A program made the translations under genes and the position numbers. Shown here piece by piece: positions 1,526 to 20,000 of a DNA stretch of 20,000 bases; position 1 is the stretch's first letter, and each line of letters opens with the position of its first letter. Below the pieces are notes generated by a model. The model did no database searches and was not told where the DNA came from. It saw only the letters and a program-made list of their open reading frames with translations. Source of the stretch: an uncultured virus (IMG/VR IMGVR_UViG_3300043446_002182) (Duplodnaviria; Heunggongvirae; Uroviricota; Caudoviricetes); IMG/VR virus record IMGVR_UViG_3300043446_002182, one strand, 5' to 3'.

Positions 1526-1552
1526 AGCACGTCCTTCGGGACGTGCTTTTTT
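1526..1552 (+). terminator. Rho-independent terminator with C(UUCG)G tetraloop
   Basis: AGCACGTCC-TTCG-GGACGTGCT perfect 9-bp stem followed by a T run, about 20 nt after the stop at 1506. Confidence 0.93.
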
Positions 1553-1553
1553 G

Positions 1554-1582
1554 TTGACTTCCAACCCGAGTTATGCCATACT
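1554..1582 (+). promoter_or_regulatory. sigma70-type early promoter with extended -10, probably giving a leaderless mRNA
   Basis: TTGACT (1554-1559), 17-bp spacer, TG-c-CATACT (-10 at 1577-1582). ATG 1590 is 7 nt downstream. Confidence 0.75.
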
Positions 1583-1589
1583 CGGTAGA

Positions 1590-2513: not shown

Positions 2514-4792
2514 TGAGCCACATACTGTCACCAGCCGAAGCAGACTTTTGGTTGGATGCTGAAAAGTATGCCAACTATTTTGAAGAGCAGACTGACCCTG
2601 CTAACGGAAGTGTTGTGTTCAGCATTGACATGGTTCGGCTTTCATCCATTCGGAAAGCCATCGCAAATTTCGTTCGCATTCTTACCCGTCAAAACATCCC
2701 CGTCTATTTCAATGACCAAGACGCTACGGTAAACTTCGGTGGCAAGACCATTTACATTTCGGCTCAAATCACCAATAAGTATGATTTTGATGTCGCTGTA
2801 GGTCAAGCCCTCCACGAAGCTGCCCATACTCTCAAGACTGACTTCGACTCGGTGAAGATTGCATGGACAAACATTCCCCATCATATTTTTGCCAAGGCAG
2901 ACTCCAAGAACATTTGGCGTCCATCATTGGAGAAGTTCATCCATACCATGTGGAATGTCATCGAAGACCGCTATATTGATGACTATGTGTTCAATGAAGC
3001 ACCGGGCTATCGGGGCTACTATGTGGCACTCTATGACCGATTCTTCAACGCTCCCGAAATTGATGAATATCTGGCCAGCGACATGTTTCGCTATCCAAGT
3101 CTGGATTCCTATTCTTTTCGTATCATCAATTTCACCAACGAGAACAGTGATTTGATGGCTTTGCCTCGGCTTGATGAAATCGCCGACGTGATTGACATCA
3201 GCAACATTTCTCGACTCAAGCGCACCGAAGACCGATTGGAAGTTGCGTTCAAAGTTGTGGAGATTGTCTTGGATTGCTTAGAGAAAGAAGACCCAAAGCA
3301 GCAACAAGGCAGTCAAGGGCAGGGAAAGCCACAACAAGGCGGTGGATTGGCGAAGCCCGAAGACTTCTTTGACTTCGGTGATGGACAAGAATCACAAGAA
3401 GACGAAAAGTCTGAAAAGGAATCCAAAGACGAGCCAAAGGCCGATAAGGAACAAAAAGGCAAGGATAAGCCTAAGAAGGAATCGCAAGAGGACAAGTCCG
3501 ACGAAGAGGGTGATGAAGATGAAGAAGTAGATGTCAGTAAGAAGATGATTGAAGACATGTCGGATGTCATGATGGGTAAAGACCCCGACCCAACCGACCA
3601 CAAAGAGAACAAGCGCATCGTAAACAAAGTCGCCGACCAAGACCTTGACAAAGATGCCAGCAAGCAAATCAAAGACCTTGTGGAAAGCCAGCGCAAATTC
3701 TTGCGGGGTGAAATGCCCAAGGCTCAAGTCACGCCACAGCAAAAGGAACTGCTTGACTTGATTGAGAAACATGGTATTGTGCTGGTCAGAGTAGATTGCC
3801 CGGAAATGCTTTTGGGTGATGATGGTAACTTGAAAGTGGATTGCATCGTTGTCCAGCAAATGACCAAAGAACTTGTCCTCTCGGGACAAGACATGTTCCC
3901 TTTATGCGGCGTCAAAAAGTTTGGTCTTGGAAAAGATGACCCCGAACCTCCCAAAGACGTTGCGGATGCAGTCAAGAAGGGAATCGCCATCGGCACGAAG
4001 CTTGGTCGCAAGTTGCAGATTCGCAACGAAGTCAATCCTATCAAAATCGTTCGCAAGCAGAATGGGAAAATCAATCGTCGGCAATTGCATGAAGCTGCTT
4101 TTGATGCCGAAGATTTGTTCTTCAAGACCCGAATTGAACAGCATAATAAAGCCAGTCTGCATATCACCGTTGACGCCAGTAGTTCAATGTCAGGCGACAA
4201 ATGGAATCAGACTATGACCGCTGTAGTTGCCATCTGCCGAGCAACTTCCATGATTGATAATGTCCATGTCACCGTCTCCTTCCGTGCCACTCAACAGACC
4301 GCAGGCACAGAATTGCCGTATGTGGTATTGGCATACGATTCAAGCGTGGACAGATTCTCAAAAGTGAAAAATCTCTTCCCCTACCTCGTTCCAAATGGCT
4401 GCACCCCCGAGGGACTGGCTTTCGGGGCAATCATGAGCCTTTTCGAGAATATCACCCCTGACGAGGAAGACCGCTATTTCCTGAACCTCTCCGATGGCGA
4501 GCCTTGCTACGTCATCAGGATGCCCGGACAGGGCGTTAGACTGTCCTACATGCGTGAGACTGGCACAACCCACACAAAGGCTCAGGTGGACAAGATTAGA
4601 GCCAAAGGCGTGGACATTATGAGCTACTTCATCACAGAGCAAAAGACCGATGTCAAGAATGAATATGCCGATACCTTGAAAAAGGACTTCCAGAAGATGT
4701 ATGGCAAAAATGCACAGTTCATTAACCCCGAAAGCCTTGTGGACTTGGCCAAGACGATGAACAAGCTTTTTTTAACTCGGGCGACACAGTAG
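2513..4792 (+). CDS. VWA-domain partner protein with N-terminal HExxH metallopeptidase-like domain and acidic linker (phage 'CobT-like')
   Basis: ALHEAAH plus NVIEDRYID; low-complexity Q/E/D/K linker (~3280-3540); MIDAS elements DASSSM, GCTP and LSDGEP; TAATG overlap with the AAA gene. Confidence 0.88.
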   Translation: MSHILSPAEADFWLDAEKYANYFEEQTDPANGSVVFSIDMVRLSSIRKAIANFVRILTRQNIPVYFNDQDATVNFGGKTIYISAQITNKYDFDVAVGQALHEAAHTLKTDFDSVKIAWTNIPHHIFAKADSKNIWRPSLEKFIHTMWNVIEDRYIDDYVFNEAPGYRGYYVALYDRFFNAPEIDEYLASDMFRYPSLDSYSFRIINFTNENSDLMALPRLDEIADVIDISNISRLKRTEDRLEVAFKVVEIVLDCLEKEDPKQQQGSQGQGKPQQGGGLAKPEDFFDFGDGQESQEDEKSEKESKDEPKADKEQKGKDKPKKESQEDKSDEEGDEDEEVDVSKKMIEDMSDVMMGKDPDPTDHKENKRIVNKVADQDLDKDASKQIKDLVESQRKFLRGEMPKAQVTPQQKELLDLIEKHGIVLVRVDCPEMLLGDDGNLKVDCIVVQQMTKELVLSGQDMFPLCGVKKFGLGKDDPEPPKDVADAVKKGIAIGTKLGRKLQIRNEVNPIKIVRKQNGKINRRQLHEAAFDAEDLFFKTRIEQHNKASLHITVDASSSMSGDKWNQTMTAVVAICRATSMIDNVHVTVSFRATQQTAGTELPYVVLAYDSSVDRFSKVKNLFPYLVPNGCTPEGLAFGAIMSLFENITPDEEDRYFLNLSDGEPCYVIRMPGQGVRLSYMRETGTTHTKAQVDKIRAKGVDIMSYFITEQKTDVKNEYADTLKKDFQKMYGKNAQFINPESLVDLAKTMNKLFLTRATQ

Positions 4793-8215: not shown

Positions 8216-9514
8216 TTACAGAAGTCGAAAATTTATGTCATCAATGGGAGGATTGTTGACGACCAGAGCCTCTTGAATTCGATTCCTCACAGGGACGTTG
8301 GCAATGTTTACGGTGATGCTGCCTAACTCAAACGTTCCCACTTCCAATGAAGCGTTGTTCTCATGTATGATGTCGTTGATTTTGACAATGACCACATCAT
8401 TGAAGATATTCTCACTTTGCGTCATATCCACGTTCAACACTACGTCGTCTTGCACGGGGAAGTCCACAAAGACATCCTCGGCCTTGAGCGTTCGGTAGTA
8501 TTTCTTGTAGAGTTCCCAATCCGAAGGGCTGATATTCAACAACTGGTTGGCAAAGTCGTGGAATTTGTTGAACGAATCACGGAACTGTTGACGCACTACG
8601 AAGTTGTCAACGTAGATGCGTTGAAACCGATAGTAGTTCTGAATGATAGGCGCAGCGTTGTGCGGGGTGACATTGGTAAAGTTTGCACTGACCCAATACT
8701 TGTATTCTTTTTCAGGGTCAAATGTCGTGTCATGTTTGAACGTAGGCCATTTCTGTAAGAAGCGGGTCATTTCCACCATGTCGGCCTGCTGTTGCAATGC
8801 CGTGCGTGCCTTGGCCTTTTCCGTCCACCATTCGATGCCTCGGGATGACGTGCAGGTAAAGTGATAGACCAGAGCATTCCATGCTTGTTCAATCTTCAGC
8901 CCCTTCATTGTGAAGCGATACAGAAGGTCAGAGTCTTCACGAGACCGACGGAAAAGTGTGTCATGACCACCAATCTCTAACCAATGTTTTTTGTAGAGGG
9001 TGAAGGGAGCAAACCAGTAGTTTGTGATTCGGTCTTGCTTTCGTTGGTTGGCAAATCTGGTGAAAGCGTCCAAGTCGAATGCCCGTGGGTTGAGTCCGAA
9101 ATCGTGAGTAATCTTCTCGGGCGATTCAGGATGTAATGGTGGTTCAATGCGGGTGGACGATATGATGTTTGATTCATTTAAGTGCTTAAGAACTTCCAAG
9201 TCGTAATCAGTCGAAATTACCATATCACTCTGTAAATATGATACAATTGGATACTTAGCCATTTCAAACATCAGGTTGATGTTTCGGGCATATCCAATAG
9301 GTATTGGTAATGGGTTTACGACAATTTTTAGATCGGAGAAAATAGATTTTTGAGTCTTCAAAAACTCAACTGTACCTTGGTTGTCATTCTCAACATAAAC
9401 AATGATTTCATGGTCATGTCGTGATAGATTTCTATGCAATGAACGAAACAGTAGTTCCAAATGAAATCGTTCGTTTCTGGCAGTATTGATACAAAATGTA
9501 ATTTGGTTAGACAT
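8216..9514 (-). CDS. Glycosyltransferase family 2 (GT-A fold) with C-terminal extension
   Basis: ITFCINT start, HEIIVYVE, GYARNIN, YLQSDMV (DxD-equivalent), IGGHD.LF, EDSDL..R, VYHF. Confidence 0.85.
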   Translation of the reverse strand: MSNQITFCINTARNERFHLELLFRSLHRNLSRHDHEIIVYVENDNQGTVEFLKTQKSIFSDLKIVVNPLPIPIGYARNINLMFEMAKYPIVSYLQSDMVISTDYDLEVLKHLNESNIISSTRIEPPLHPESPEKITHDFGLNPRAFDLDAFTRFANQRKQDRITNYWFAPFTLYKKHWLEIGGHDTLFRRSREDSDLLYRFTMKGLKIEQAWNALVYHFTCTSSRGIEWWTEKAKARTALQQQADMVEMTRFLQKWPTFKHDTTFDPEKEYKYWVSANFTNVTPHNAAPIIQNYYRFQRIYVDNFVVRQQFRDSFNKFHDFANQLLNISPSDWELYKKYYRTLKAEDVFVDFPVQDDVVLNVDMTQSENIFNDVVIVKINDIIHENNASLEVGTFELGSITVNIANVPVRNRIQEALVVNNPPIDDINFRLL

Positions 9515-9965
9515 GACGTATGTTCTTTATTTTTCGGATGGTCTTTCCCATAAGTAGCATTTCATCGTGAGTGAACACATTACTCTTTACGCCATTACAC
9601 ATTGGGCAGCAGACGCAACAATTTTTTACTGAATACCCTCGATTACTGTCTATTCGGTCAAGATAGTAATTATAGTGGTTCTCTCTCCGGTTACGAGCGT
9701 GAGGTTGCCATTCTATATCACATCCACAATAACTACAAGATTTTATATCAGTAAACCTGACGAATTCTTGATATGTTATGTTGCAGGGCACATTACGTTT
9801 TTTGGCTTTGTGTCGAAGTGTTGTAAGTAAAAATTCATATGGCCTATTTTTGTGGCTACAACTCGTGCAGGTAAGATTAAGACGGATTGATTTTAAGAGG
9901 TTGCTCCGATGTGTGTAGGTCATCAATCCCCCACACTTGGGGCAGTCTTTGGAAAGAGTAGTCAT
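9507..9965 (-). CDS. Free-standing HNH-type homing endonuclease with Zn ribbons
   Basis: CPKC/CTSC, AKKRN, CSYCG, LDRIDSNRGYSVKNCCVCCPMCNGVKS. Lower GC than most neighbours and inserted inside the sugar operon. Confidence 0.82.
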   Translation of the reverse strand: MTTLSKDCPKCGGLMTYTHRSNLLKSIRLNLTCTSCSHKNRPYEFLLTTLRHKAKKRNVPCNITYQEFVRFTDIKSCSYCGCDIEWQPHARNRRENHYNYYLDRIDSNRGYSVKNCCVCCPMCNGVKSNVFTHDEMLLMGKTIRKIKNIRHV

Positions 9966-10813
9966 GTTAATTCTTCAACCATTCGGACAATGCCTTGTTC
10001 GAGACCATACAAGTCATAGCCTTGTTGTGCCAATACGATACCGTTACCAGTGTAAGGGTTATCCAGTCCGGGGGTCTTGATTTCAAAGTTGTCAAGTTTA
10101 CCCATGACGTGACAAATGTTTTTAGCAAGGTCAGACAGCAGAACTTTTTTCTGATAGACCAAGTTCATATGCCGAGTATCACTTTCTTGGTCTGTGATAA
10201 CACGGTCAACGACCGCAGCAACGTCGTCAATGTAAAAGAAATCCATGTATTTGTCCTTGAGGATTTCAATTGGCAAACCTTGCTTCAACCGATTGATGGA
10301 ACGTTTGATGAATCGAAAATCAGGTTCATCTGCTCCAAAGCAGCCGAACAGACGAAGTAAGAATGGATTGCTAACATCCCACCCGTCGTCATATGTGCCA
10401 TTGACAAAGCGACGAGAAATGATGTTCTTGGTCAACCCATACAAATCCAAGGGGTAGTTGTGAAAGAGTTCAACTTCACGAGCATCATCAATTGGGAAAC
10501 GACGGTCAAATTCTGCGCCCGAACCAAAAATAATCGTCGGACGCTCAATCGAGTCGGCCATGTAGATGTTTTCATACATGGTTAGGTTGGAAACCAAATC
10601 ACTCTCAGTGTTTTGAGCCGAGAAATGGCCTTTGAATGCAGTATGTATGATGGCGTCGGGACAATGACGATTCAAATACTCGACATATCCCTCGTAATTG
10701 GTCATATCCAACTCTTGACGAGTTGGAGCGAGAACTGTGTGGTCGTATTTGGGAAGTATGCGGGCAAGATTTCTACCAACAAATCCACCCCCACCTGTGA
10801 TTAGAACTCTCAT
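9962..10813 (-). CDS. Extended SDR NAD(P)-dependent nucleotide-sugar reductase/epimerase
   Basis: ITGGGGFVG, IIHTA, FGSGAEFD, YGLTK catalytic motif, RLFGCFG, DFFYIDD. Confidence 0.88.
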   Translation of the reverse strand: MRVLITGGGGFVGRNLARILPKYDHTVLAPTRQELDMTNYEGYVEYLNRHCPDAIIHTAFKGHFSAQNTESDLVSNLTMYENIYMADSIERPTIIFGSGAEFDRRFPIDDAREVELFHNYPLDLYGLTKNIISRRFVNGTYDDGWDVSNPFLLRLFGCFGADEPDFRFIKRSINRLKQGLPIEILKDKYMDFFYIDDVAAVVDRVITDQESDTRHMNLVYQKKVLLSDLAKNICHVMGKLDNFEIKTPGLDNPYTGNGIVLAQQGYDLYGLEQGIVRMVEELT

Positions 10814-11286
10814 TTTGACAAATTCATGTAGGATGGACGACCATTATTGATGAAATGATGCATTGCATGAGCCATTGCTTCTTCGGACTCGGGTTTGTAA
10901 AGCGCAATGTTGCTCAAAGTTGACAAAACTGTGATGTCTTCATCTGCCCAATGGGTGTAGCCGAGGTATCCATAGTCTTTGTTGCGTCCACCGCCGACGA
11001 TTTTGATGGGCGTGTTCTCAAAATGCATGTAGTTGCGGATGAACTCGAATGGCCGATAGATGGCAAATGGGGTGATTGAATAACAAACAGGCACACGACC
11101 CTCCAACGCCATGCCACAGGCTGCGCCAATCATGAGTTGTTCGGCAGAACCAACGTTGAAGAAGCGAGTTGGATAGGTATCCCGCACAGCATCCCATAGA
11201 CCATAGCCCATGTCGGCAGTAATCAGCACAATGGATTCATTTTGACCCATGAGCGACAACAAATTGGCAGCAAATGCTTTTCTCAT
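10810..11286 (-). CDS. Transketolase-like beta subunit (pyrimidine-binding domain only)
   Basis: MRKAF, ITADMG, RFFNVGSAEQLMIGAACGMALEG, RPFEFIRN, GYTHWADED. Ends at 158 aa with no transketolase C-terminal domain. Confidence 0.88.
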   Translation of the reverse strand: MRKAFAANLLSLMGQNESIVLITADMGYGLWDAVRDTYPTRFFNVGSAEQLMIGAACGMALEGRVPVCYSITPFAIYRPFEFIRNYMHFENTPIKIVGGGRNKDYGYLGYTHWADEDITVLSTLSNIALYKPESEEAMAHAMHHFINNGRPSYMNLSK

Positions 11287-11984
11287 TACTGTGGTGCTCC
11301 TTCGACAATCGTTGCCCCAGCGACCAATGGCATTTCCTTGGTCAATTCCAGTGCTACAAGATAGTCTGGTTCTTTCATGATATGATAGTGGGCATTCATA
11401 CCTTTCAAAAACGGAAATTCTTCGGTTGCTCTCTGAATGCCATGAACAATGGTGATGTTTCCATTGCTATTGAACGGTGCGAGACGGGCAGCAAACGTAT
11501 TCAGAGGAATCTCACGATATGCCCCGAATCCATTGTGCATGATGTAAACCTTGATGTTTGGAATCTTCTCGTCGGCGATGAATCGGAGGCTTTCCCACAC
11601 GACTCCCTCGGCGCATTCACCATCACTGAGCATGACATATACCTTGCGAGAAGGATTTGCCAAGGCCCGACCTACAGCGACAGAAATTCCCATTCCAAGA
11701 CTACCAGTGGAGCACCAGATGAAGTTGTCGGGGTCTAAGTGAGGATGACCACCATGTTTCTTGAATAGTTTCTCGGCATCTACGCCGTGGTGTTTTTCCA
11801 GAACGACGTATTGTGCCAAGGCTGCGTGGCCGTTTGAAAGGATGAAGATGTCTTCGGGAGACTTCTGGTTGAAAATCATTTCGATGGTGTCCACACAAGA
11901 CATATAGCTGCCCAAGTGGGACAGTTTGTTCTTGTATGCAATCTCAATGATGCGGCGTTTCAGGTCTTTGTTCAGAGTTACCAT
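11286..11984 (-). CDS. Transketolase-like alpha subunit (TPP-binding N-terminal domain)
   Basis: SHLGS, FILSNGH, GHP, STGSLGMG, LSDGECAEG..WE...HNG (GDG..N TPP motif variant). Start set at ATG 11984, overlapping the upstream stop. Confidence 0.9.
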   Translation of the reverse strand: MVTLNKDLKRRIIEIAYKNKLSHLGSYMSCVDTIEMIFNQKSPEDIFILSNGHAALAQYVVLEKHHGVDAEKLFKKHGGHPHLDPDNFIWCSTGSLGMGISVAVGRALANPSRKVYVMLSDGECAEGVVWESLRFIADEKIPNIKVYIMHNGFGAYREIPLNTFAARLAPFNSNGNITIVHGIQRATEEFPFLKGMNAHYHIMKEPDYLVALELTKEMPLVAGATIVEGAPQ

Positions 11985-12922
11985 ACAAAATGGTCGGTGT
12001 AATGTTCCACGATGCTGCGTAATTGGTAGTCGAATTGTTTTTTCGGCTTCCATCCCAAAGCTTTAAGCTTGGAGTCATCCAACGCATAGCGGACATCTTG
12101 ACCATCACGAGAATACGTGAAATCGCAGAATTGTTCAACATTTTTTATTCCATACATGATGTGGACAATTCGTTCGACAACTTCGATGTTCTGTAACTCC
12201 TGATTTCCTGAGATATTATAGATTTCGTTCGTAACACCTGATTCTATGATGGTTACGACTGCCTCTGCCGTATCCGCAGCATGTAGCCACATGCGATAGG
12301 GCTTGCCTCCGTTGTGAAGGGGAATCTTTCGGTCCAAGTTCAGATATTTTACTGTCTTGGGAATCAGTTTCTCAACGTATTGGCCGATACCGTAATTGTT
12401 GGTTGGCCGGACAATGATGTAGGGGACTTTGAAGGTTCGTGCCCAAGCCAAAATGAGCATGTCAGCAGCCGCCTTGGTTGCTGAATATGGGTTGGAGGGC
12501 TTGAGAAGGTCTTTCTCGGTGTGTGCGCCTTCGGAAATGTCGCCATACACTTCATCAGTGCTGAAATGAAGCAAGGTGGGCATCTTAAAGAGACCCTTTT
12601 GCCGAATCAGTTCCAACAAATGTTTGACACCATTGATGTTTGAGTGGAGAAATTCATCGCTGCTTACGATAGAGTTGTCAACGTGCGTTTCTGCCGCAGT
12701 ATTGATAACATAGTCACAATCCAACAAGGATGTCAGGTCGTTGATGTCAGACTTGATGAACTTGAAGTTGGGGTTCTTTTGAAAGGCTTCCAGACGGTCT
12801 GGTTGAGAAGCATATGTCATCTTGTCAACGCCAATGACATACCAGCCTTTGTCAAGGCAGGCTTGCGTGACATATGCCCCAATGAATCCGAGGCATCCCG
12901 TGACATATACAATCTTTTTCAT
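11978..12922 (-). CDS. rfbB: dTDP-glucose 4,6-dehydratase (RmlB-type)
   Basis: VTGCLGFIG, DKMTYA, AAETHVDNSI, STDEVYG, PSNPYSATKAA, NNYG..QY.EKLIP, R.GQDVRYALD. Confidence 0.9.
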   Translation of the reverse strand: MKKIVYVTGCLGFIGAYVTQACLDKGWYVIGVDKMTYASQPDRLEAFQKNPNFKFIKSDINDLTSLLDCDYVINTAAETHVDNSIVSSDEFLHSNINGVKHLLELIRQKGLFKMPTLLHFSTDEVYGDISEGAHTEKDLLKPSNPYSATKAAADMLILAWARTFKVPYIIVRPTNNYGIGQYVEKLIPKTVKYLNLDRKIPLHNGGKPYRMWLHAADTAEAVVTIIESGVTNEIYNISGNQELQNIEVVERIVHIMYGIKNVEQFCDFTYSRDGQDVRYALDDSKLKALGWKPKKQFDYQLRSIVEHYTDHFVW

Positions 12923-13155
12923 ACTCCGTCTTGCTTTTGTTTGCGCTTCTTGGCAATGAATTTGCGAATCAATTCAAGTTGAACTTCAACTGAGAAGCCA
13001 TTTTTGACTCCCGTTTCTAAGTCTTCGTCCAACTGTTCCATTGTAACGCCCATGCTTTTCAGAAGTTCGCTCTTGACGTAATCCTTGTCTTCTTGGGACA
13101 TCCAAGGCTCGTAGAGCATTTCAAAAATCTGGTTTAGTGATGCTTCGTGTTTCAT
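12919..13155 (-). CDS. Small hypothetical protein (78 aa)
   Basis: ATG 13155 forms an ATGA overlap with the upstream gene, and its stop forms an ATGA overlap with rfbB. Confidence 0.65.
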   Translation of the reverse strand: MKHEASLNQIFEMLYEPWMSQEDKDYVKSELLKSMGVTMEQLDEDLETGVKNGFSVEVQLELIRKFIAKKRKQKQDGV

Positions 13156-13847
13156 ACCTTTTTCTTCAATACAAAATACCAATTCCAACTGGTTCTTAGT
13201 TCTTCGGGCATTTCTTCTTCGGCCTGCAACCGTGGGTAATCAGGTGTTTGTAGGGGTGACGGGTAAACCGAATCCACCACAAACCCATGAATGTAGAAGA
13301 AATACAACACGTTGTCGTAATCCCACAGTCCACGGTAGAGAAATTGATGCCCCATTCTCCAATTGGGCACGCTGATTAAGACCTGAGAGGTTTCAGTCGT
13401 CAGAGCATGAATCTTACGTAACACATTAGAGGGAGCGAGCAAATGCTCCAATACATCATTACATATCACCAAGTCATAGGAAGAGTTCAACCCATTTGTA
13501 TCAAGGTCAATGGCGATGTCTTTGACGAAGAACTTGCCCTTAAAATTATTCTCCTTGAAGAATTTCTCAGCAAATGGCTTATCCACCAGATGATAGTCAA
13601 TCTCAAGGTCTTTTTGAACCAGTTGGCTCAAATGTCCCGGTCCAGACCCAATTTCAAGGACAGTCTTGGCCGACCCTTCCTTGATTACTTCACGGACAAG
13701 CTGGGCTTCATATTCATAACGAATTTCCCATCCCTTCTCGTGGACACGGGTTGTGTTTTCCCATTCATTTGAATCCAAGGTGTCAAGGTCTTTGTGGACG
13801 TTGAAATCTCGTTCAAACGGGACGTGTTGTAATCGGAAGACGCTCAT
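13152..13847 (-). CDS. Class I SAM-dependent methyltransferase
   Basis: VLEIGSGPG motif I, YDLVICNDVLEHL, ISVPN. Confidence 0.88.
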   Translation of the reverse strand: MSVFRLQHVPFERDFNVHKDLDTLDSNEWENTTRVHEKGWEIRYEYEAQLVREVIKEGSAKTVLEIGSGPGHLSQLVQKDLEIDYHLVDKPFAEKFFKENNFKGKFFVKDIAIDLDTNGLNSSYDLVICNDVLEHLLAPSNVLRKIHALTTETSQVLISVPNWRMGHQFLYRGLWDYDNVLYFFYIHGFVVDSVYPSPLQTPDYPRLQAEEEMPEELRTSWNWYFVLKKKV

Positions 13848-15193
13848 AGGGCTTTGAAAAACTCGTTGACCTTTGTTTCTACGTAATCAAGTTGGTTATG
13901 GTTGATGACGGGGCTTGTTCCCAAGAATAATGTGTCGGTGGTAACTTTGGTTGCCACTGGATATGCTGTCTTAGCATTGGAAATAGTTGCTCCACTCCAA
14001 TGATATGAATTCAATCCCTTGGTTAGTTCGCTATATGCTGGTTGTAAGAGAATGTTCCCACCAAAATAGTTGCGTGTCTGAATTTTGTTACCTTCCAAGA
14101 ATTGTGTCAAAGTTGACCGCTTAAAAGGAGCAGAGTCACGGACTGTGATTGGAAATGCGAACCACGACGGGTCAGAAAGCAGAGTCGCCCCGTGCATGTG
14201 GAAGTATTGCTCATAGGGGTTGAATATCTGTGACAGTCGGCGGTGATTAAACTTGCGACGTGAATGGATTTCAGGCAACTTATCCATTTGTGCCAGACCC
14301 ATTGAGCATTGAAGTTCGATTGGCTTCAGATTGTAGCCAATGTTGTCATAGACGTATTTGTGGTCGAAGATTTCATCTGGAATCTCAGGAATCCATGCGC
14401 TGAAGCGGCAACCACAGCTTCCTTTGGTTGAAAGGTTTGCTTTCTTACCAACACAGAAGCAACCACGTCCCCATTCACGGAGACTGCGGGCAATCTTTTC
14501 TTGAATGTCATTGGAGCAGGCAACAAACCCACCTTCACCCATTGTCATGTGATGGGCAGGATAGAATGAGCAAGTAGCCATATCTGCCGTAGAACCGACA
14601 GGAATGCCCTCGTAGGTTGTTCCCAAAGCATCGCAGCAGTCTTCCAATACAATCAGACCATACTTTGATTTGATAGCATCAAGACGGGTCATGTCGGGAG
14701 GATTTCCAAGAACATGTGCGAACATCAAGACCCGTGCCCCATTCTTGGCTGCTTCCTCAACTTGGTCGAGGTTCAGGTTGAGTGTGCTCAACTCAATATC
14801 AACAAACACAGGTGTAAGCTTGGCTTGAATGATGGGATTAACGGTTGTAGGGAAACCAGCCGCAGGAACGATGACTTTAGTGCCATCTTCCCACTTGAAG
14901 TATTTCTTGGCAGTCAGCACCATGATAAGATTGGCACTGGAACCACTGTTTACGACAATACCGTGCTTTTTTCCGAGCAACGGTGGGAACTTGCTTTCAA
15001 ACTTCATGGCATCTTCGCCAAGAACCAACCACTCGTTGAGAAGTGAGCCGATGGCGTTGACGTATTCTTTCTCGTCGAAGTACGCACCAGCATATTGAAC
15101 CCAATCTACTCCGGGCGTCCACTTCTTTGCCGCTTGCTTTTCCAAAATGTATTCAGCGACATCCTTGAGAATTTCATCTTTACTTTTTGCCAT
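13844..15193 (-). CDS. rfbH: NDP-4-keto-6-deoxyglucose 3-dehydrase (RfbH/DdhC E1; PMP and [2Fe-2S] dependent)
   Basis: DegT fold (NSGSSAN, FPTT.NP, HVLGNP, EDCCDALG). SFYPAHHMTMGEGG has His instead of the PLP Lys. WGRGCFC...C and DHKY are Fe-S ligand motifs; TRNYFGGN. Confidence 0.92.
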   Translation of the reverse strand: MAKSKDEILKDVAEYILEKQAAKKWTPGVDWVQYAGAYFDEKEYVNAIGSLLNEWLVLGEDAMKFESKFPPLLGKKHGIVVNSGSSANLIMVLTAKKYFKWEDGTKVIVPAAGFPTTVNPIIQAKLTPVFVDIELSTLNLNLDQVEEAAKNGARVLMFAHVLGNPPDMTRLDAIKSKYGLIVLEDCCDALGTTYEGIPVGSTADMATCSFYPAHHMTMGEGGFVACSNDIQEKIARSLREWGRGCFCVGKKANLSTKGSCGCRFSAWIPEIPDEIFDHKYVYDNIGYNLKPIELQCSMGLAQMDKLPEIHSRRKFNHRRLSQIFNPYEQYFHMHGATLLSDPSWFAFPITVRDSAPFKRSTLTQFLEGNKIQTRNYFGGNILLQPAYSELTKGLNSYHWSGATISNAKTAYPVATKVTTDTLFLGTSPVINHNQLDYVETKVNEFFKAL

Positions 15194-16187
15194 TGGTCAT
15201 TTGGTCGTAAATCCACGCATAGGTCTTTTCCAAGCCTTCACGCATGGTGATGCTTGGTTCCCAGCCCAACACTTGCTTGATAAGCGTGTTGTCCGAATTG
15301 CGGCCACGAACACCCTTCGGTGCGTCGAGCTTGTAAGAACGCTTTAGCTTGATGCCAGCGATGTCTTCCACCGTGTCAACCAATTGGTTGATTGAAATAA
15401 GGTCTTCTCGACCAAGATTGATAGGTTGTGAGAAGTCTGAATCCATCAGCTTGTTAATGCCGAGAACACAGTCATCAACATACATAAAGCTACGAGTCTG
15501 CTCACCATCACCCCAAATTTCGATGTTGTGATTGCCTGAAAGCTTGGCAGCAATGACTTTGCGACAAATTGCGGCTGGTGCTTTCTCACGTCCACCTTCA
15601 TATGTGCCCTTTGGCCCATAGACGTTATGGAAGCGGGCTACCCGAACCTGAATGCCGTAGTCTTCCATGAAGTGTCGGCACATACGCTCACTGAAAAGCT
15701 TTTCCCATCCGTAGCCATCTTCGGCCATAGCAGGATAAGCATCAGCTTCTTTGAGAGCAACAATGTCTGTGGTGGTTTGCTTGTCATGAGCATAGACACA
15801 GGCAGACGAAGCGTAGAAGAACTTCTTCACACCAGCTTCCTTAGCTGCCAGAATCAAGTGTGTATTGATAAGCACGGAAAGCATACATTCGGCTTTATGA
15901 GTTTCGATGAAACCCATTCCACCCATGTCCGCAGCAAGGTTGTAAACTTCATCAACTCCGTTGTCTTTCCAATTTCCAACCAGTCCATGATTCTTGGTGA
16001 CAGCATAACGGCACATACCAAGGTCTTTCATATCCAATTGAATGTTTTCAGCACCACTAAATGCTTGATACCATTCGGTGACTGGTTTGATGTCCACGGC
16101 ACGAACTTCATAACCTTTGGATAGTAAATCTTTGACGAGAAATCCGCCAATGAATCCGCCTGCACCTGCGACTAGAACTTTTTTCAT
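15180..16187 (-). CDS. GDP-mannose 3,5-epimerase (GME-like)
   Basis: VAGAGGFIG, NLAADMGGMGFI, SSACVY (catalytic Cys), YGWEK, GGREKAPAAICRK (catalytic Lys), GVRGRNSDN. Start set at ATG 16187. Confidence 0.88.
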   Translation of the reverse strand: MKKVLVAGAGGFIGGFLVKDLLSKGYEVRAVDIKPVTEWYQAFSGAENIQLDMKDLGMCRYAVTKNHGLVGNWKDNGVDEVYNLAADMGGMGFIETHKAECMLSVLINTHLILAAKEAGVKKFFYASSACVYAHDKQTTTDIVALKEADAYPAMAEDGYGWEKLFSERMCRHFMEDYGIQVRVARFHNVYGPKGTYEGGREKAPAAICRKVIAAKLSGNHNIEIWGDGEQTRSFMYVDDCVLGINKLMDSDFSQPINLGREDLISINQLVDTVEDIAGIKLKRSYKLDAPKGVRGRNSDNTLIKQVLGWEPSITMREGLEKTYAWIYDQMTNGKK

Positions 16188-16191
16188 AACT

Positions 16192-16890
16192 TTATGGTTT
16201 GACTGCCCACGTTGTATCCCATTCCAATTCCTCGGCTGGAATGTCTTTCTCATCGGTCACGATTTGTCCAATGCGACCAAGCACGATTGCTTCGATTTGA
16301 TAGTTTGGCTCCAAAATAGCTTTGAAACCGGAAAACTTGTTGTCCAACCCTTCATACAGTTGAACATCTGCAAAAGTCTCAAGGTGAAGCTTCTTGATTT
16401 TCTTTTGTGATAGATAATCACCCATCGTTCGGAGAATTGTCAAATCACTGCCTTGACAGTCCGACACGTAGTAATCAATAGTGTCAACCCCTTTTGCTTT
16501 GAGGAATTCGCCGAGGTTAATGGTTTCAACTTCGACTTGTTTGATGGATTTGTCGTTGGGATGATAACGACCAGTATCTCCACCATAAGGAGTTCCAGCA
16601 GGACACCAGATAGCAGCACTTTCACCCAAAGACGTGGCTACACGATTTGGTGTGATGTAAAGAGTGGCCTTTCCATTTTTGTCAGAGCAGGCCAGATTGA
16701 AAATGTGAGCACCACTAATTCCATCCATTATTCCCTTACACATGGCGAACATTTCAGGGTCAGGCTCGAAGGCATAAATGGTTTCGTATTGTCGTGCTAA
16801 TGCCCGCAGCGAATTGCCATTGTTAGTTCCACAATAGACGAGGGTCTTTCCTTTGGAAGTAATGTCACCATTGAGTTGATACGTTATCAT
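16192..16890 (-). CDS. FkbM-family methyltransferase
   Basis: VYCGTNNG, YAFEPDP, NLACSDKNG, VETINL, IDYYVSDCQGSD. Confidence 0.85.
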   Translation of the reverse strand: MITYQLNGDITSKGKTLVYCGTNNGNSLRALARQYETIYAFEPDPEMFAMCKGIMDGISGAHIFNLACSDKNGKATLYITPNRVATSLGESAAIWCPAGTPYGGDTGRYHPNDKSIKQVEVETINLGEFLKAKGVDTIDYYVSDCQGSDLTILRTMGDYLSQKKIKKLHLETFADVQLYEGLDNKFSGFKAILEPNYQIEAIVLGRIGQIVTDEKDIPAEELEWDTTWAVKP

Positions 16891-17705
16891 TGGTAGTGCT
16901 TGATTATCTCGACCAAGCCTTCATTGATTTCCGTGGTAGGTTTCCACAGATTCAAGATGTATTGGTCTGGTTCGTTACGTTGTCCCTTTTGAACAGTGTC
17001 TTTGTCCACTCCGGGCACAATTGGAACGTTACCACATAGTTTAGAGATATTCTGTGCAATGTCAATAATTTTTAACCACTTAAATGTGGTAATGTGAAGC
17101 TCTTGGTCACGAGGAACGTTTTTATACTGTTCGGCGAGCGTCAGAAGACATTCTGAGCAGTCACGGGCATATAAAAACTGGCGTTCTTCTTCCCCATCGG
17201 TTCGCATCCGAATTTCCTTCTTGTCCAGAGCCATCTTCACGAAGTCCGTAATGACGTGCGTCTTGGCGGGGTCATGTTCTACCCCATACACGTTCCAAAA
17301 CTTCACCACAAGCCCGCCAAGCGTCTTGGCGTAGTATTCCCCGAGGGCTTTAAGAACCCCATAGCTGGAAAACGACATATTTGACATCTGGCTCGACGCA
17401 AAGATGAAGGGCTTATTATATCTCCGCAAGGCATCGAATGTCACTTGCATGAGGCGGGTGTTGTTGTCAATGAACTGGAAGGTGTGTTGGTAAGCCTTCA
17501 AATACGTTGAACCACCGACATCAAATGCCAAGAAGAACACAAAGTCGGCTTCTTGCATGTAATTGTCAATGCGACCAGCCACTCGCAAGTCTTCCACTGC
17601 TGTTCGGGCAATGTCAAAGTGACGGACTTGATGGCCTTCCGATTTCAAATAGGTTGCGAGTGCCGCACCGATTTGACCTGACGAACCTAAGACGAGACAT
17701 TTCAT
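16887..17705 (-). CDS. Extended SDR NAD-dependent nucleotide-sugar epimerase/dehydratase
   Basis: VLGSSGQIG, LAFDVGG, ASSQM, YGVLK, FWNVYG, DGEEERQFLY. Confidence 0.85.
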   Translation of the reverse strand: MKCLVLGSSGQIGAALATYLKSEGHQVRHFDIARTAVEDLRVAGRIDNYMQEADFVFFLAFDVGGSTYLKAYQHTFQFIDNNTRLMQVTFDALRRYNKPFIFASSQMSNMSFSSYGVLKALGEYYAKTLGGLVVKFWNVYGVEHDPAKTHVITDFVKMALDKKEIRMRTDGEEERQFLYARDCSECLLTLAEQYKNVPRDQELHITTFKWLKIIDIAQNISKLCGNVPIVPGVDKDTVQKGQRNEPDQYILNLWKPTTEINEGLVEIIKHYQ

Positions 17706-18574
17706 AGTGATTCAAATTTCTGTTTGTAATTGTTGAAGACCCAATCGAACCGAGTGTTGTAGGCTCGTGCCTTCTCAACATTCTCTTGCACCGCAGCAAT
17801 CTTGCTGTGATACAGTTCGGGAGTCAGGGTAGGCAACAAAGCATCCAACTCTTCAATTGTGTTGAATGAAATGATGCCATCGGGATTGAAATACTTTCCG
17901 ATGTTATCTGTGCCCCACCAAATCGGAATTGTTCCTGCGGCCAATACGTCGGTAAGGATTTCCGTAAAGTAATCATCAGACTTCGAGTTCATGATGGCGA
18001 ATGAAAAATAGTAGGGAGCTACCGCCAGAATTTTACCAAGTCGTCCACCATTGTAGTTGTCAATGATGTTGTTGTAGCCACTACCATACGTCTCAATTTT
18101 GCCGGGATAACGATTGACGACGACGTGACGAAGCTTGTGTCCTTCCGTCCATTGTTTGTGGGAAGCAACGATTGAAATCAATCGTTCTTTTTCATACATA
18201 CCAAACTCTTCGAGTTTGATGCGATTGCCGCCCGCAGGCATCCACAGATAACGGTCGCCCACCAAGTCTTTGAGCCACGTTTGAGGACTCATGACATAGG
18301 TGAAATGTTGGTGGTTCTCTCGAATCCACTTGTAGGGATGAAACAAAGAGGGATTGTTGCCGCAACAGAAGTCGTAGATAGCAGGGGCTTCGACGATGGC
18401 TGCAATTTTGATTTTGTTGGGATGCTGAACGTGGTTGGGGAGGAATGTGTCCTCGAAAATGTGAACGTCACCATCAGGAGTTCCCTTTACCCAATCCCAA
18501 ACTTCTTGGGCAGGAGGAATCATGTCAACGTAGTTGGAACGCTCTTCGGCTGTGTGATATGTAACTTTTTTCAT
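17702..18574 (-). CDS. GT10 (alpha-1,3-fucosyltransferase-like) glycosyltransferase with divergent donor motif
   Basis: ISIVASHK..TEGHKLRH, YGSGYN, and YYFSFAIMN..DDYFTEILTD...GTIPIWWG, compared with the family consensus EN.....Y.TEK..D....GT.PIY.G. Confidence 0.75.
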   Translation of the reverse strand: MKKVTYHTAEERSNYVDMIPPAQEVWDWVKGTPDGDVHIFEDTFLPNHVQHPNKIKIAAIVEAPAIYDFCCGNNPSLFHPYKWIRENHQHFTYVMSPQTWLKDLVGDRYLWMPAGGNRIKLEEFGMYEKERLISIVASHKQWTEGHKLRHVVVNRYPGKIETYGSGYNNIIDNYNGGRLGKILAVAPYYFSFAIMNSKSDDYFTEILTDVLAAGTIPIWWGTDNIGKYFNPDGIISFNTIEELDALLPTLTPELYHSKIAAVQENVEKARAYNTRFDWVFNNYKQKFESL

Positions 18575-19479
18575 ATGTTTGATGCAAGTATTGTTCCGAT
18601 ATTTGAAAACTCCGTGTATGGTATTCTTAATAACTGAACTTGATTGTTTTTAGCCCATTTAGTCTTTAAGGAGTCTCTACGTTGATTGTTTTTTAACTCC
18701 CGATTGGTCATTTTGTGTCTTCCATGATGTATGCATTTGAAATGTTGTTCGCCATCATATTCAATCAATATATTTTTTAATGGAATAAAAAAATCAAATG
18801 GTAATTTCTTATTTGTTTTTGGATTCCGCAAATCATCGAAAGTTTTCTGTCGTATGTAATTGACGTGGTTATCTTTTAACCACTTTTCAATTTTCAATTC
18901 TCCCCGTGAAGAGTTACATATCGGACATCCATGCCCCTTTAGATGATTGTGTGGAGTTTGTAAAAAATCCCCATGAATTTTACATGTGATAGTAATGTCA
19001 GAATGTGCCGATGAATAATCTACTTTAGAGTAGTCATACAAATCTCCATGTTGTTGAATTGCATTTTCAATAAAATCTTTTGAAGATTTTTTGAAATTTC
19101 CATAACATACCGGACACCCCTGCTCTCCATATAAATGGTTTACGGGTGATTGGAAAAAATATCCATGAATTTTACAACCTATAGTTATTTTTTCATATCT
19201 ATTTTTATATTCCGATTTAGAGTAATCATACTTGTTCCCATGAATTTCTTTGGCACGTTTAATAAATTCTTGCGTAGTCAATTTCAAATTATTACTACAT
19301 GATTTACACCCAAATCCTTGCAAATGTGCTCCTGCGGATTGTCTAAAATCTCCATGTTTATTGCACGTTATTACAATCTTTTCTTTTACTCCAGAATAAA
19401 TAGATTTGGAATAATCATATTTATTTCCATGCGTTTTAGAGGCTCGGGCTATAAAATCTTTAGTTGTTAATTTTCGCAT
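18571..19479 (-). CDS. Free-standing Hef-like homing endonuclease: three CapR/DUF723-like Zn-binding repeats plus a Vsr/DUF559-like PD-(D/E)xK nuclease
   Basis: Three HG..YDYSK..Y......I.C..HG.F.Q....HL...GC..C units; C-terminal SRGE..I...L, PFDFFIP...LIEYDGEQH, RD..K..WA......LLRIPY. AT-rich. Start is probably ATG 19479 (alternative 19494). Confidence 0.85.
   Translation of the reverse strand: MRKLTTKDFIARASKTHGNKYDYSKSIYSGVKEKIVITCNKHGDFRQSAGAHLQGFGCKSCSNNLKLTTQEFIKRAKEIHGNKYDYSKSEYKNRYEKITIGCKIHGYFFQSPVNHLYGEQGCPVCYGNFKKSSKDFIENAIQQHGDLYDYSKVDYSSAHSDITITCKIHGDFLQTPHNHLKGHGCPICNSSRGELKIEKWLKDNHVNYIRQKTFDDLRNPKTNKKLPFDFFIPLKNILIEYDGEQHFKCIHHGRHKMTNRELKNNQRRDSLKTKWAKNNQVQLLRIPYTEFSNIGTILASNI
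18916..19470 (-). repeat. Three degenerate ~63-64-codon intragenic tandem repeats
   Basis: Repeated protein units TTKDFI..HGNKYDYSK, TTQEFI..HGNKYDYSK and SSKDFI..HGDLYDYSK. Confidence 0.85.
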
Positions 19480-20000
19480 TTCACTATATTCCATTCTGGA
19501 AGAATCAAATCATTATAATTAAATCCTTCATCCAACAATGCTTTTCCGTACCATATGGATGGAACATAAACATTAGATGCCTTAGATAAATATGAACTCC
19601 ACCATCCAAAACTACTATTGGAAATAATTATATTTTTGCACATAGATATTATGTATAACTCGATATAATCAGTGTCTGTGATGTATTGAACGGGGCAATC
19701 AAAACGAAGGTTTTCTTTGCACCAATTGATGTCATCACTAAAAACCCATATCTCCTTTGCTGCTGCCAATTTTACTGCTTTAGCATAATAATCGGGGTGT
19801 AATAAGGGATGGTGGTCGGGAAATTTTACATAATCGCCTCTTCTTACCTGTATAGCAGTAACATTTTCAAACTGCATTCCTCGGGAAGAATACTTCTTAT
19901 AGATTTCATTTTTGATTTTCTCAGGACAACTAAATAAGTCTCGGATGTAATCTCGGTTGTGGTCGAAATACTTGTAGGATTGATAGTGGCCGCTCAACTT
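19467..20000 (-). CDS. GT11 alpha-1,2-fucosyltransferase-like glycosyltransferase (5' part outside the window)
   Basis: Frame open to the window edge: KLSGHYQSYKYF, QVRRGDY, FSDDINWC, IISNSSFGWW. Confidence 0.9.
   Translation of the reverse strand, partial: KLSGHYQSYKYFDHNRDYIRDLFSCPEKIKNEIYKKYSSRGMQFENVTAIQVRRGDYVKFPDHHPLLHPDYYAKAVKLAAAKEIWVFSDDINWCKENLRFDCPVQYITDTDYIELYIISMCKNIIISNSSFGWWSSYLSKASNVYVPSIWYGKALLDEGFNYNDLILPEWNIVKCEN

Follow-up and report, generated by a model that had tools for sequence, protein, structure and literature searches.

A stretch of 20,000 nucleotides from an uncultured virus of the Caudoviricetes (IMG/VR record IMGVR_UViG_3300043446_002182), called the window here, carries on its minus strand a run of genes that is probably a phage cassette for a nucleotide-activated 3,6-dideoxy-4-C-branched hexose, as judged from gene content and context. 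The run encodes an RfbH/E1-type 3-dehydrase, a methyltransferase, a small open reading frame (ORF), an RmlB-type 4,6-dehydratase, the alpha and beta subunits of a miniature split transketolase (mini-TK; transketolase is abbreviated TK), which is a thiamine diphosphate (ThDP) enzyme, and a reductase of the short-chain dehydrogenase/reductase (SDR) type. An earlier sequence-only reading had placed such a run at 9962-15193, and every gene that it named was found there by ORF listing combined with Pfam, NCBIfam and PHROG scans. Its limits did not stand, since the glycan island extends on both sides, from 7803 to at least contig position 50472. The small ORF exists but has a homologue in no fetched locus and is not a member of the conserved module, and the TK is indeed split, but its beta subunit is the pyrimidine-binding (Pyr) domain alone, without the transketolase C-terminal domain. 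Adjacent ORFs of the cassette overlap by 1-8 nt, except for an overlap of 37 nt between the longest reading of the small ORF and the methyltransferase, an arrangement that fits translational coupling.

The pathway logic of that reading, in which a 4,6-dehydratase and E1 are followed by ThDP-dependent branching at C4 and by reduction through the SDR, is supported by a five-gene core that recurs in related loci and by a ThDP position that appears interchangeable within it. A search with TK alpha gave 21 loci (fetched loci are numbered with the letter L), 12 of them viral and nine on contigs of metagenome-assembled genomes (MAGs) or single amplified genomes (SAGs). TK beta is present in 11 of the 12 viral loci, L015 ending at the contig edge. 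The gene-neighbourhood comparison proposed earlier thus shows the five-gene core, with RfbH, RmlB and the SDR accompanying the pair, in nine of the 12 viral loci (L007-L014 and L018); L016 has all three partners too, with RfbH cut by the locus end, and L017 has the pair alone, without sugar partners. Two gene orders are seen, namely RfbH-(methyltransferase)-RmlB-TK alpha-TK beta-SDR-GT2, which is that of the window and ends in a family 2 glycosyltransferase, and TK alpha-TK beta-SDR-RfbH-RmlB. The SDR follows immediately after TK beta in L008-L014, L016, L018 and L024-L026. L007 and L009 are syntenic with the window out to the clamp-loader and dNMP-kinase genes. In L007 an inserted HNH gene parts TK alpha from beta, an endonuclease gene lying between the two subunit genes there (8703-9431) and also in L110 (about 3798).

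A scan of prokaryotes with one genome per species left 80 kept loci, and TK alpha at 41% identity or more occurs in just nine of them, all on MAG or SAG contigs, with the assigned taxa Maricaulis, Thaumarchaeota, Actinomarina, Flavobacteriaceae, Planctomycetaceae, Euryarchaeota and Patescibacteria. The whole module is found in three of these nine loci, and RfbH adjoins the pair in one. By Pfam context L023 is phage-like (SegE endonuclease) and L019-L021 resemble viral islands, and L022 (an Actinomarina SAG with WecG, Bac_transf and NeuB) and L027 (Patescibacteria) look cellular. The remaining 71 of the 80 loci are Bacteroidota housekeeping pairs of 30-36% identity, with the sugar genes of the module absent nearby. 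On this evidence the mini-TK clade is mostly, not exclusively, viral.

RfbH has 463 relatives in viral contigs, and the best 80 (55-68% identity) were analysed, their loci being sorted by BLASTP against the window proteins with RmlB counted at 50% identity or more. The mini-TK occurs in 14 of these 80 loci, RmlB and the SDR occur without TK in 39, and one or both of them are absent in 27, which were set aside. Of the 126 ORFs that intervene in the 39 loci, 105 were scanned with Pfam. In 24 of these loci the position is taken by a protein of the acetolactate synthase (ALS)/YerE type with TPP_enzyme_N/M/C domains, either 575-616 aa long or split into parts of about 335 and 250 aa, and in seven by an E1_dh subunit of miniature size (196-221 aa) together with a Pyr-like subunit (about 177 aa), which resemble the E1 component of pyruvate dehydrogenase (PDH-E1-like). 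L113 has both types, bringing the totals to 25 YerE-type and 8 PDH-E1-like loci. The acetolactate-synthase-like and PDH-E1 alpha/beta-like identities were confirmed with NCBIfam. Altogether, a ThDP enzyme is found in 46 of the 53 RfbH loci that have TK, or RmlB plus SDR.

A quick RfbH tree (LG+G4, 73 distinct rows, 52 of them labelled by ThDP type) shows 21 changes of ThDP type across the labelled rows, and the window RfbH lies in a six-member clade with a support of 100, which comprises four TK members, one of PDH-E1 type and one of YerE type. Because the ThDP types are interleaved on this tree, the same keto-sugar-forming enzymes appear to have been recombined repeatedly with any of three ThDP superfamilies. 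A 2025 review lists the same three superfamilies as able to branch keto-sugars (PMC12247030). Since the reaction on this substrate class is established for the other two superfamilies, which occupy the same position, the simplest reading by analogy is that the mini-TK performs an equivalent branching step.

Genes for the donor are found in part of the sister loci. In L100, L101, L113 and L137, an acetaldehyde dehydrogenase and an HMGL/DmpG aldolase (DmpG/BphI-type) stand beside the YerE-type enzyme. ErwJ and ErwI supply 4-hydroxy-2-oxopentanoate to ErwE in erwiniose biosynthesis, as described by Steitz et al. (PMC9306805), and the YerE-type enzyme with the dehydrogenase-aldolase pair in these four loci corresponds, by gene content, exactly to the ErwE/ErwJ/ErwI arrangement of the erwiniose cluster. 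Many YerE-type loci add other keto-acid-forming genes, such as HpcH-type aldolases, ketopantoate hydroxymethyltransferase, or NeuB with a DHQ-synthase-like protein and an SDR. Ketopantoate hydroxymethyltransferase homologues (Pfam E about 1e-95) adjoin the YerE-type enzymes at L106:11034-11963, L129:11747-12673 and L151:13207-14145, which suggests 2-dehydropantoate or a related hydroxymethylated keto acid as branch donor in these loci. In L118, L127, L135 and L143 (e.g., L118:10910-13648), the YerE-type enzyme is found together with NeuB- or HpcH-like aldolases, a short-chain dehydrogenase and a protein resembling 3-dehydroquinate synthase, and this suggests that the branch donors of these phages are longer and possibly cyclised or polyhydroxylated.

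The mini-TK itself is well delimited by its domains. TK alpha, whose true start is probably at 11984, giving 232 aa, matches Pfam Transketolase_N (E 1e-9) and DXP_synthase_N, and its best Pfam and NCBIfam matches are transketolase and 1-deoxy-D-xylulose-5-phosphate synthase (DXS). The best PDB matches are those to a split transketolase, 6YAK for alpha (E 1e-14) and 6YAJ for beta (E 1e-16). The architecture is not YerE-like, because Transketolase_N and Transket_pyr are matched instead of TPP_enzyme_N/M/C, and the proposal that a transketolase-fold enzyme stands in place of YerE agrees with the YerE-type enzymes seen in the sister loci. The best 120 database matches of alpha (58-100% identity) are nearly all 201-232 aa long, and clustering of the alpha family at 50% identity gave 107 clusters at E <= 1e-30, 944 at 1e-10 and 3108 at 1e-3. 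The median length of alpha is 212 aa in the mini clade (n=35) vs. 283 aa in Bacteroidota housekeeping split TKs (n=71), and that of beta is 158 aa (n=33) vs. 319 aa (n=39; range 317-348 aa). The pair has no TK C-terminal domain (no Transketolase_C match) and is about 70 residues short in the diphosphate-binding (PP) domain. Some alpha homologues (P0128, P0171, P0170, P0154 and P0206) carry extra domains: the match begins at residue 176-327 of proteins of 380-558 aa, and in one 390-aa homologue it is N-terminal; these proteins may be alpha-beta or other fusions.

The active site was mapped in the numbering of E. coli TktA, and the residue numbers were checked on E. coli tktA for residue type. 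H26, H66, H100, G114, L116, D155, E160, N185, H261, R358, D381, E411, F437 and H473 are retained in every mini sequence, and the ThDP/metal motif with the cofactor-activating glutamate (D155, E160, N185 and E411) is invariant in 27 alpha and 26 beta sequences, the ThDP motif reading SDGE...NG and not GDG. Four positions are replaced, S385 by G in 21 of 26 sequences, H461 by G in all 26, D469 by L in 22 of 26 and H258 by N in 19 of 27. The window beta itself has G, G and L at 385, 461 and 469 and retains R358, E411 and H473; the beta chain stops exactly at the equivalent of R520, which is K158 in the window and R or K across the clade. In the housekeeping controls, S385, H461 and D469 are all retained in 39 of 39 beta subunits. 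We take R358, S385, H461 and R520 to bind the substrate phosphate and D469 to orient the aldose acceptor, and H26, H100, H261 and H473 presumably hold the dihydroxyethyl-ThDP intermediate. As S385, H461 and D469 are replaced while the ThDP and catalytic residues are kept, the cofactor chemistry appears intact and the substrate pocket appears to be no longer that of a sugar-phosphate transketolase.

In a quick maximum-likelihood (ML) tree of alpha, 28 mini alphas lie on one side of a branch with an SH-aLRT of 99, and 25 sampled housekeeping sequences and E. coli TktA lie on the opposite side. The phylogeny suggested in the sequence-only reading therefore sets the pair apart, and the idea that it groups with ordinary transketolase failed, with phosphate- and aldose-site residues lost as well. 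The pair is thus no housekeeping enzyme, falling outside transketolase proper by its substrate residues and missing third domain and outside the YerE family by its architecture; it belongs to the transketolase superfamily and probably works like YerE. In tblastn searches of the phage collection with alpha and beta, just matches of 27-36% were obtained, and no cultured phage there has a mini-TK; these matches fall in fragment records, in human-fecal 'Bacteriophage sp.' records that carry no annotation and in one Salmonella contig filed there.

In the deoxygenation half of the cassette, the window RfbH scores above the NCBIfam equivalog cut-off (NF011936, 438.3 bits vs. 423), and its residues 5-446 align with residues 7-433 of the Yersinia E1 structure 3BCX (also 3BB8) at E 3e-87. 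In this alignment RfbH SFYPAHHMTMGEGG is paired with SFYPAHHITMGEGG of 3BCX, and H214/H215 stand at the position of the lysine that binds pyridoxal 5'-phosphate (PLP), the histidine that replaces this lysine in E1 being H220. The cysteines of RfbH are spaced C187-X57-C245-X1-C247-X12-C260; we take the [2Fe-2S] ligand motif of E1 to be C-X57-C-X1-C-X7-C, and the final spacer exceeds that of E1 by 5 residues. H214, H215 and all four cysteines occur without exception in the 72 distinct homologues taken from these fetched loci. Because of the histidine at the PLP-lysine site and the four invariant cysteines, the window RfbH is predicted to be an E1-type, Fe-S-dependent 3-dehydrase and not a ColD-type enzyme, the latter not being known to have an Fe-S cluster. 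The dehydratase matches TIGR01181 over its full length with 309 bits, below the equivalog cut-off of 365, and dTDP-glucose 4,6-dehydratases account for all 10 of its PDB matches at E <= 1e-30 (dTDP, deoxythymidine diphosphate). Alignment to 2HUN shows its DE and YxxxK motifs, and the CDP-glucose dehydratase model TIGR02622 gives merely 70 bits (CDP, cytidine diphosphate). Because the dehydratase is RmlB-type, dTDP is the more likely nucleotide carrier than the CDP of yersiniose, as far as family resemblance can tell. Nucleotidyltransferases near the module in L018, L012 and L024 have weak, non-diagnostic RmlA/GlmU-like scores.

Two further proteins were considered in connection with electron supply to E1. 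The 89-aa ORF of the window was ruled out as a ferredoxin or as a stand-in for E3, having zero cysteines and zero homologues in the fetched loci. In three sister loci (L104:11202-12359, L116:12507-13664 and L130:11710-12867), a 385-aa LdpA-like 4Fe-4S dicluster protein, followed by a 126-aa protein, lies between the YerE-type enzyme and the reductase. The LdpA-like protein of these loci is a candidate for a phage-encoded electron donor of the E1 3-dehydrase.

In the proposed pathway, the RmlB-type enzyme would convert nucleoside diphosphate (NDP)-glucose of the host, probably dTDP-glucose, to NDP-4-keto-6-deoxyglucose, and E1/RfbH, with pyridoxamine 5'-phosphate (PMP) and its [2Fe-2S] cluster, would strip the 3-hydroxyl with the help of an external reductant to give NDP-4-keto-3,6-dideoxyglucose. 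The mini-TK would then add a two-carbon acyl-anion equivalent to the C4 ketone, generating a tertiary alcohol; the added unit would be hydroxyacetyl if the enzyme is transketolase-like and acetyl if it is DXS-like. The RmlD-like SDR would reduce the new side-chain ketone to a 4-C-(hydroxyalkyl) sugar, the methyltransferase may add an optional methyl group, and the adjacent GT2 would move the sugar into the glycan made by the rest of the island. Since donor-synthesis genes are absent from the TK-type loci, unlike many YerE-type loci, the donor of the mini-TK may well be a common small metabolite. Hydroxyacetyl, from hydroxypyruvate or a ketose, is favored because H26, H100, H261 and H473 are retained, and we give it an even chance; acetyl from pyruvate, as in DXS, is a serious candidate of lesser probability, and any other donor is improbable. 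The PDH-E1-like superfamily is described as specialised for C2 branches (review PMC12247030). A GT2 orthologue (48% identity) follows the reductase in L099, a PDH-E1-type locus, and because orthologous GT2s are shared by TK-type loci and L099, a small, C2-size branch is supported by analogy.

Several observations weigh against this pathway. Neither an E3-type reductase nor a Fer2 or NAD_binding_1 domain was found on the 51-kb contig (about 15% of the genome), the Fer2 domain was not found either in the records of five viral relatives, of which one is 86% complete, and a nucleotidyltransferase was looked for on the contig with none found. E1 turnover therefore hangs on a donor that is not encoded nearby. 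The E1 homologue SpnQ works with host ferredoxin or flavodoxin, and the phage would presumably take its NDP-glucose from the host and use one of these host proteins. Seven of the 39 RfbH loci with RmlB and SDR have no ThDP enzyme, and none was found among the ORFs upstream of the SDR in the five of them that were checked there; because of these loci, SDRs of this family may also be plain 4-ketoreductases. Of the 39, the seven loci L107, L109, L128, L131, L167, L168 and L173 (21 ORFs) were classed through near-identical twins with the same ORF layout. The pair has no RfbH orthologue within 8-9 kb in six of the 21 TK alpha loci (L017, L023, L024-L026 and L027). As L024-L026 (L024:4079-9933; L024 and L026 are TMED MAG contigs) have the pair and the SDR, without RfbH or RmlB, beside different sugar genes, the pair can serve other pathways. 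The housekeeping comparison set, which came from a pattern scan, consists of Bacteroidota only, and the alpha tree is a quick ML tree. Furthermore, the review states that no ketone-accepting TK has yet been characterised in vitro (PMC12247030).

Some of these observations would suit an ordinary unbranched 3,6-dideoxyhexose of the abequose, paratose or ascarylose type, with the SDR as C4 ketoreductase and the TK acting separately, for instance on another keto-sugar or a sugar phosphate of the island. In its favor are the seven of the 80 RfbH loci in which SDR, RmlB and RfbH occur but a ThDP enzyme is lacking both within the module and immediately upstream of it, the loci with pair and SDR only (L024-L026) or with the pair alone (L017 and L023), and the cultured Synechococcus phages S-H68 and RN05-S, whose RfbH sugar loci are without a ThDP enzyme. 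However, the pair sits between RmlB and the SDR with overlapping reading frames, the SDR stays its immediate neighbor in both gene orders, the same place elsewhere holds families known to branch this keto-sugar, together with donor-synthesis genes, and a ThDP enzyme is the rule in the comparable RfbH loci (46/53), so that we regard the unbranched product as unlikely. Chance is invoked by another explanation, in which the pair is an auxiliary pentose-phosphate transketolase that boosts nucleotide or NADPH supply, comparable to the cyanophage transaldolase, and lies in the island by accident. Transaldolase does occur in cyanophage sugar loci, the best family matches are transketolase and DXS, and the core catalytic histidines and the cofactor-activating glutamate are all retained. 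Against this stand the missing C-terminal domain and about 70 missing PP residues, the loss of the phosphate-site residues S385 and H461 and of the aldose-orienting D469 in nearly all members, the long, supported branch that divides the pair from housekeeping TKs, its co-occurrence with RfbH, RmlB and SDR in 14 of the 21 TK alpha loci and its replacement by sugar-branching ThDP enzymes in sister loci; together these leave such a role very little probability.

The chemistry at the 4-keto sugar might also be of another kind. ThDP enzymes both form and cleave bonds next to a carbonyl, and the mini-TK might act as a lyase that cleaves a C-C bond beside the ketone or might transfer an acyl unit that is longer or of another type; the resulting sugar would then differ from yersiniose. 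The remodelled acceptor/donor pocket of the mini-TK is in keeping with this, and ErwE-type enzymes are described as taking C4-C8 donors, not pyruvate (PMC12247030, PMC9306805). On the other side, the TK loci are without donor-synthesis genes, which speaks for a small metabolite of common occurrence as donor, the reductase has been retained, as would suit a keto branch awaiting reduction, and the GT2 orthologue is common to TK-type loci and a PDH-E1-type locus. We consider this outcome rather improbable, and a C2 branch added at C4 and reduced by the SDR remains the preferred reading of the cassette.

The other members of the cassette vary more among loci. The SDR (283 aa) has weak PDB matches to dTDP-4-dehydrorhamnose reductases. 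Methyltransferase orthologues of 59-66% identity lie between RfbH and RmlB in L008-L010, L110, L111 and L158, a Methyltransf_24 protein takes this position in L007 and L099-L101, and the methyltransferase is missing from L011-L014 and L019-L021. The small ORF at 12919-13188 gave no family match and no tblastn match in any fetched locus. GT2 orthologues (48-66% identity) follow the reductase in L007-L010, L099, L110, L111 and L158, and the HNH/endonuclease VII-like gene at 9507..9965 is lacking at that place in L007-L010. Directly downstream of GT2, a 132-aa protein is the sole island protein with hydrophobic segments in a Kyte-Doolittle scan and could mark a membrane step of the glycan pathway. 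Pfam and PHROG scans gave no match for it as a GtrA-type flippase, and an Atlas feature search led to DUF1360-like viral clusters with a score of 0.90, which is a lead only. Family scans found no Wzx, Wzy or initiating phosphotransferase on the contig. Glycan assembly is probably cytoplasmic, and the virion, the cell envelope and DNA are all possible targets.

The window corresponds to positions 28429-48428 of a viral record of 51,457 bp, which is about 15% complete according to CheckV. The contig carries a T4 gp19 tail tube, a T4 baseplate protein, a clamp-loader A subunit, a RecA/UvsX-like recombinase, a DnaB-like helicase and a class II ribonucleotide reductase, with Hsp20 and dNMP kinase among its remaining genes. 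The T4-like character noted at the outset is thereby borne out by the tail tube and baseplate genes, and because these genes lie in a viral record, the contig is not a bacterial chromosome, an alternative that had been raised with the original proposal. The nearest cultured relative by RecA is the Microcystis phage Mel-JY01 at just 45.5% identity, and a megablast comparison of the whole window with phage DNA returned no match among 50,697 records. The window DNA is present in sequencing runs labelled freshwater metagenome, two of which may derive from the source sample; no RNA dataset is listed as containing the cassette. The features of the island within the window are collected in Table 1.

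Table 1. Position, strand and basis of assignment of the cassette genes and of the adjoining glycan island in the window.
Feature	Position	Strand	Basis
E1/RfbH-type PMP- and [2Fe-2S]-dependent NDP-4-keto-6-deoxyhexose 3-dehydrase (predicted), 449 aa	13844..15193	-	NCBIfam RfbH
Class I S-adenosylmethionine (SAM)-dependent methyltransferase, 231 aa, optional tailoring gene	13152..13847	-	Pfam Methyltransf_23, E 1e-13
Small ORF, 89 aa by longest reading, non-conserved	12919..13188	-	no family match
RmlB-type NDP-glucose 4,6-dehydratase, 314 aa	11978..12922	-	TIGR01181 309 bits
Mini-TK alpha, ThDP diphosphate-binding (PP) domain, 232 aa	11286..11984 (longest ORF to 12053)	-	Transketolase_N, DXP_synthase_N
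Mini-TK beta, pyrimidine-binding (Pyr) domain, 158 aa	10810..11286	-	Pfam Transket_pyr, E 2e-19
RmlD-like extended SDR, 283 aa, proposed branch-carbonyl reductase (YerF/ErwF analogue)	9962..10813	-	Pfam Epimerase, RmlD_sub_bind
HNH/endonuclease VII-like homing endonuclease between reductase and GT2	9507..9965	-	PHROG endonuclease families, E 1e-14 to 6e-12
GT2-family glycosyltransferase, 432 aa, candidate branched-sugar transferase	8216..9514	-	Pfam Glycos_transf_2
Small protein with four hydrophobic segments, 132 aa	7803..8201	-	Kyte-Doolittle scan
Rest of glycan island: Fcl/GalE-like SDR (357 aa), FkbM methyltransferase, SDR (272 aa), GT10-like transferase, HNH homing endonuclease, GT2+GT11 fusion	15180..20000	-	Pfam, NCBIfam

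The GT2+GT11 fusion crosses the window end and continues on the contig as a GT2+GT11 protein of 518 aa, followed by a 342-aa protein of no assigned family and a NUMOD3 endonuclease. Homing-type endonucleases (HNH, NUMOD3 and treble-clef DUF4379) are dispersed in the island, at 9507-9965 and 18571-19494 of the window and at 50450-51160 of the contig (L006:2651-3361), and those of the window split the reductase from GT2 and GT10 from GT2+GT11. On the plus strand, 1551-4792 of the window encodes a MoxR/CobS-like AAA+ ATPase (320 aa) and then a 759-aa protein without a Pfam match, which we take to be reminiscent of CobS/CobT-like pairs in large phages. Among the other loci, the neighbors of the pair in L024-L026 are an HldE-like nucleotidyltransferase, a PfkB kinase, a cupin, an NTP_transf_3 protein (524 aa), GT61 and a class II aldolase. 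In the viral sugar island of L018, a homologue of the RuBisCO large chain (10601-11749) comes right after the nucleotidyltransferase of the module and scores 172 bits as type III RuBisCO and 145 bits as 3-oxo-isoapionate-4-phosphate decarboxylase, both far under the cut-offs.

In full-text literature searches, no paper was met that connects a transketolase-like enzyme with RfbH-type pathways of phages, and none that describes the mini-TK. The mini-TK family is compact and, with its 107 clusters at 50% identity (E <= 1e-30), diverse, and the gene context predicts the acceptor, which makes the proposal testable in vitro. For annotation, mini-TK genes are not to be read as pentose-phosphate auxiliary metabolic genes. 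Large aquatic phages would appear to encode complete tailoring routes for rare branched deoxysugars and to exchange the branching enzyme between lineages. A variable glycan, either on the virion or on the infected cell, is suggested by this, with a possible bearing on adsorption, superinfection exclusion or defence evasion. A more far-reaching view is put forward only tentatively: in aquatic phages a constant RfbH/RmlB/reductase set, making one and the same keto-sugar, would have been combined with three unrelated ThDP types, swapped repeatedly and with or without donor genes, so that the carbon branch on a glycan of the surface or the virion would vary, plausibly in response to recognition between host and phage. 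The mini-TK (about 370 aa per alpha-beta unit) might then be the smallest transketolase-family enzyme and the first with a ketone acceptor, transferring hydroxyacetyl to yield a 3,6-dideoxy-4-C-(1,2-dihydroxyethyl)-hexose, a sugar of which we know no description. ThDP-made tertiary alcohols on ketones are, in the words of the 2025 review, sought after in biocatalysis, and viruses are an unexplored source (PMC12247030).

Compared with known systems, the order of the proposed chemistry is the same as that of CDP-yersiniose A in Yersinia pseudotuberculosis (E1/E3, YerE and YerF) and of erwiniose in Pectobacterium atrosepticum (ErwE, ErwF, ErwI and ErwJ), in which 4,6-dehydration, E1-type 3-deoxygenation, ThDP-dependent addition to the C4 ketone and NAD(P)H-dependent reduction of the branch are described (PMC12247030, PMC9306805). 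The likeness lies in the contiguous 4,6-dehydratase, 3-dehydrase, ThDP enzyme and reductase of the window, in a full-length E1 with its histidine and cysteine signatures, and in the sister phage loci, which carry a YerE/ErwE-type enzyme and ErwI/ErwJ-like genes at the same position. In contrast, the branching enzyme of the window comes from the transketolase superfamily and theirs is a decarboxylase (ALS-like), the dehydratase is RmlB-type (dTDP-like) and not the CDP-glucose type of yersiniose, no E3 or nucleotidyltransferase was found on the contig, and the carrier is a phage instead of a bacterial O-antigen locus. The earlier label of a yersiniose/erwiniose-like pathway may thus be kept for the chemistry and not for the sugar itself.

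For the TK in this role, the split TKs of miharamycin and amipurimycin in Streptomyces are the only published precedent; hydroxyacetyl branching is proposed for them and not shown in vitro, and the 13 putative cases given there are all from Streptomycetes (PMC12247030). Like these, the window enzyme belongs to the transketolase family, is encoded by two genes, is placed in a sugar pathway and presumably accepts a keto-sugar; unlike them (they were compared by description only, and belong to actinomycete nucleoside-antibiotic clusters), it is miniature (232+158 aa), phage-borne and paired with E1. With the split TK of Carboxydothermus hydrogenoformans (6YAK/6YAJ) and those of Bacteroidota, it shares the PP-then-Pyr order and D155/N185, E411, H26, H66, H100, H261 and H473. 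It differs from them in its identity of 30-36%, in subunits shorter by about 70 aa (alpha) and 160 aa (beta) across its clade, in the replaced S385, H461 and D469, and in a context of glycan synthesis, not central metabolism. The KbDH-alpha/beta enzymes of kibdelomycin, which are PDH-E1-like (alpha-KADH2), consist of two subunits, depend on ThDP and attach a C2 unit to keto-sugars, according to the review (PMC12247030). The mini-TK resembles them in its two subunits, and a miniature E1_dh version fills the same position in 8 sister phage loci, whereas their superfamily is E1_dh and that of the window enzyme is Transketolase_N.

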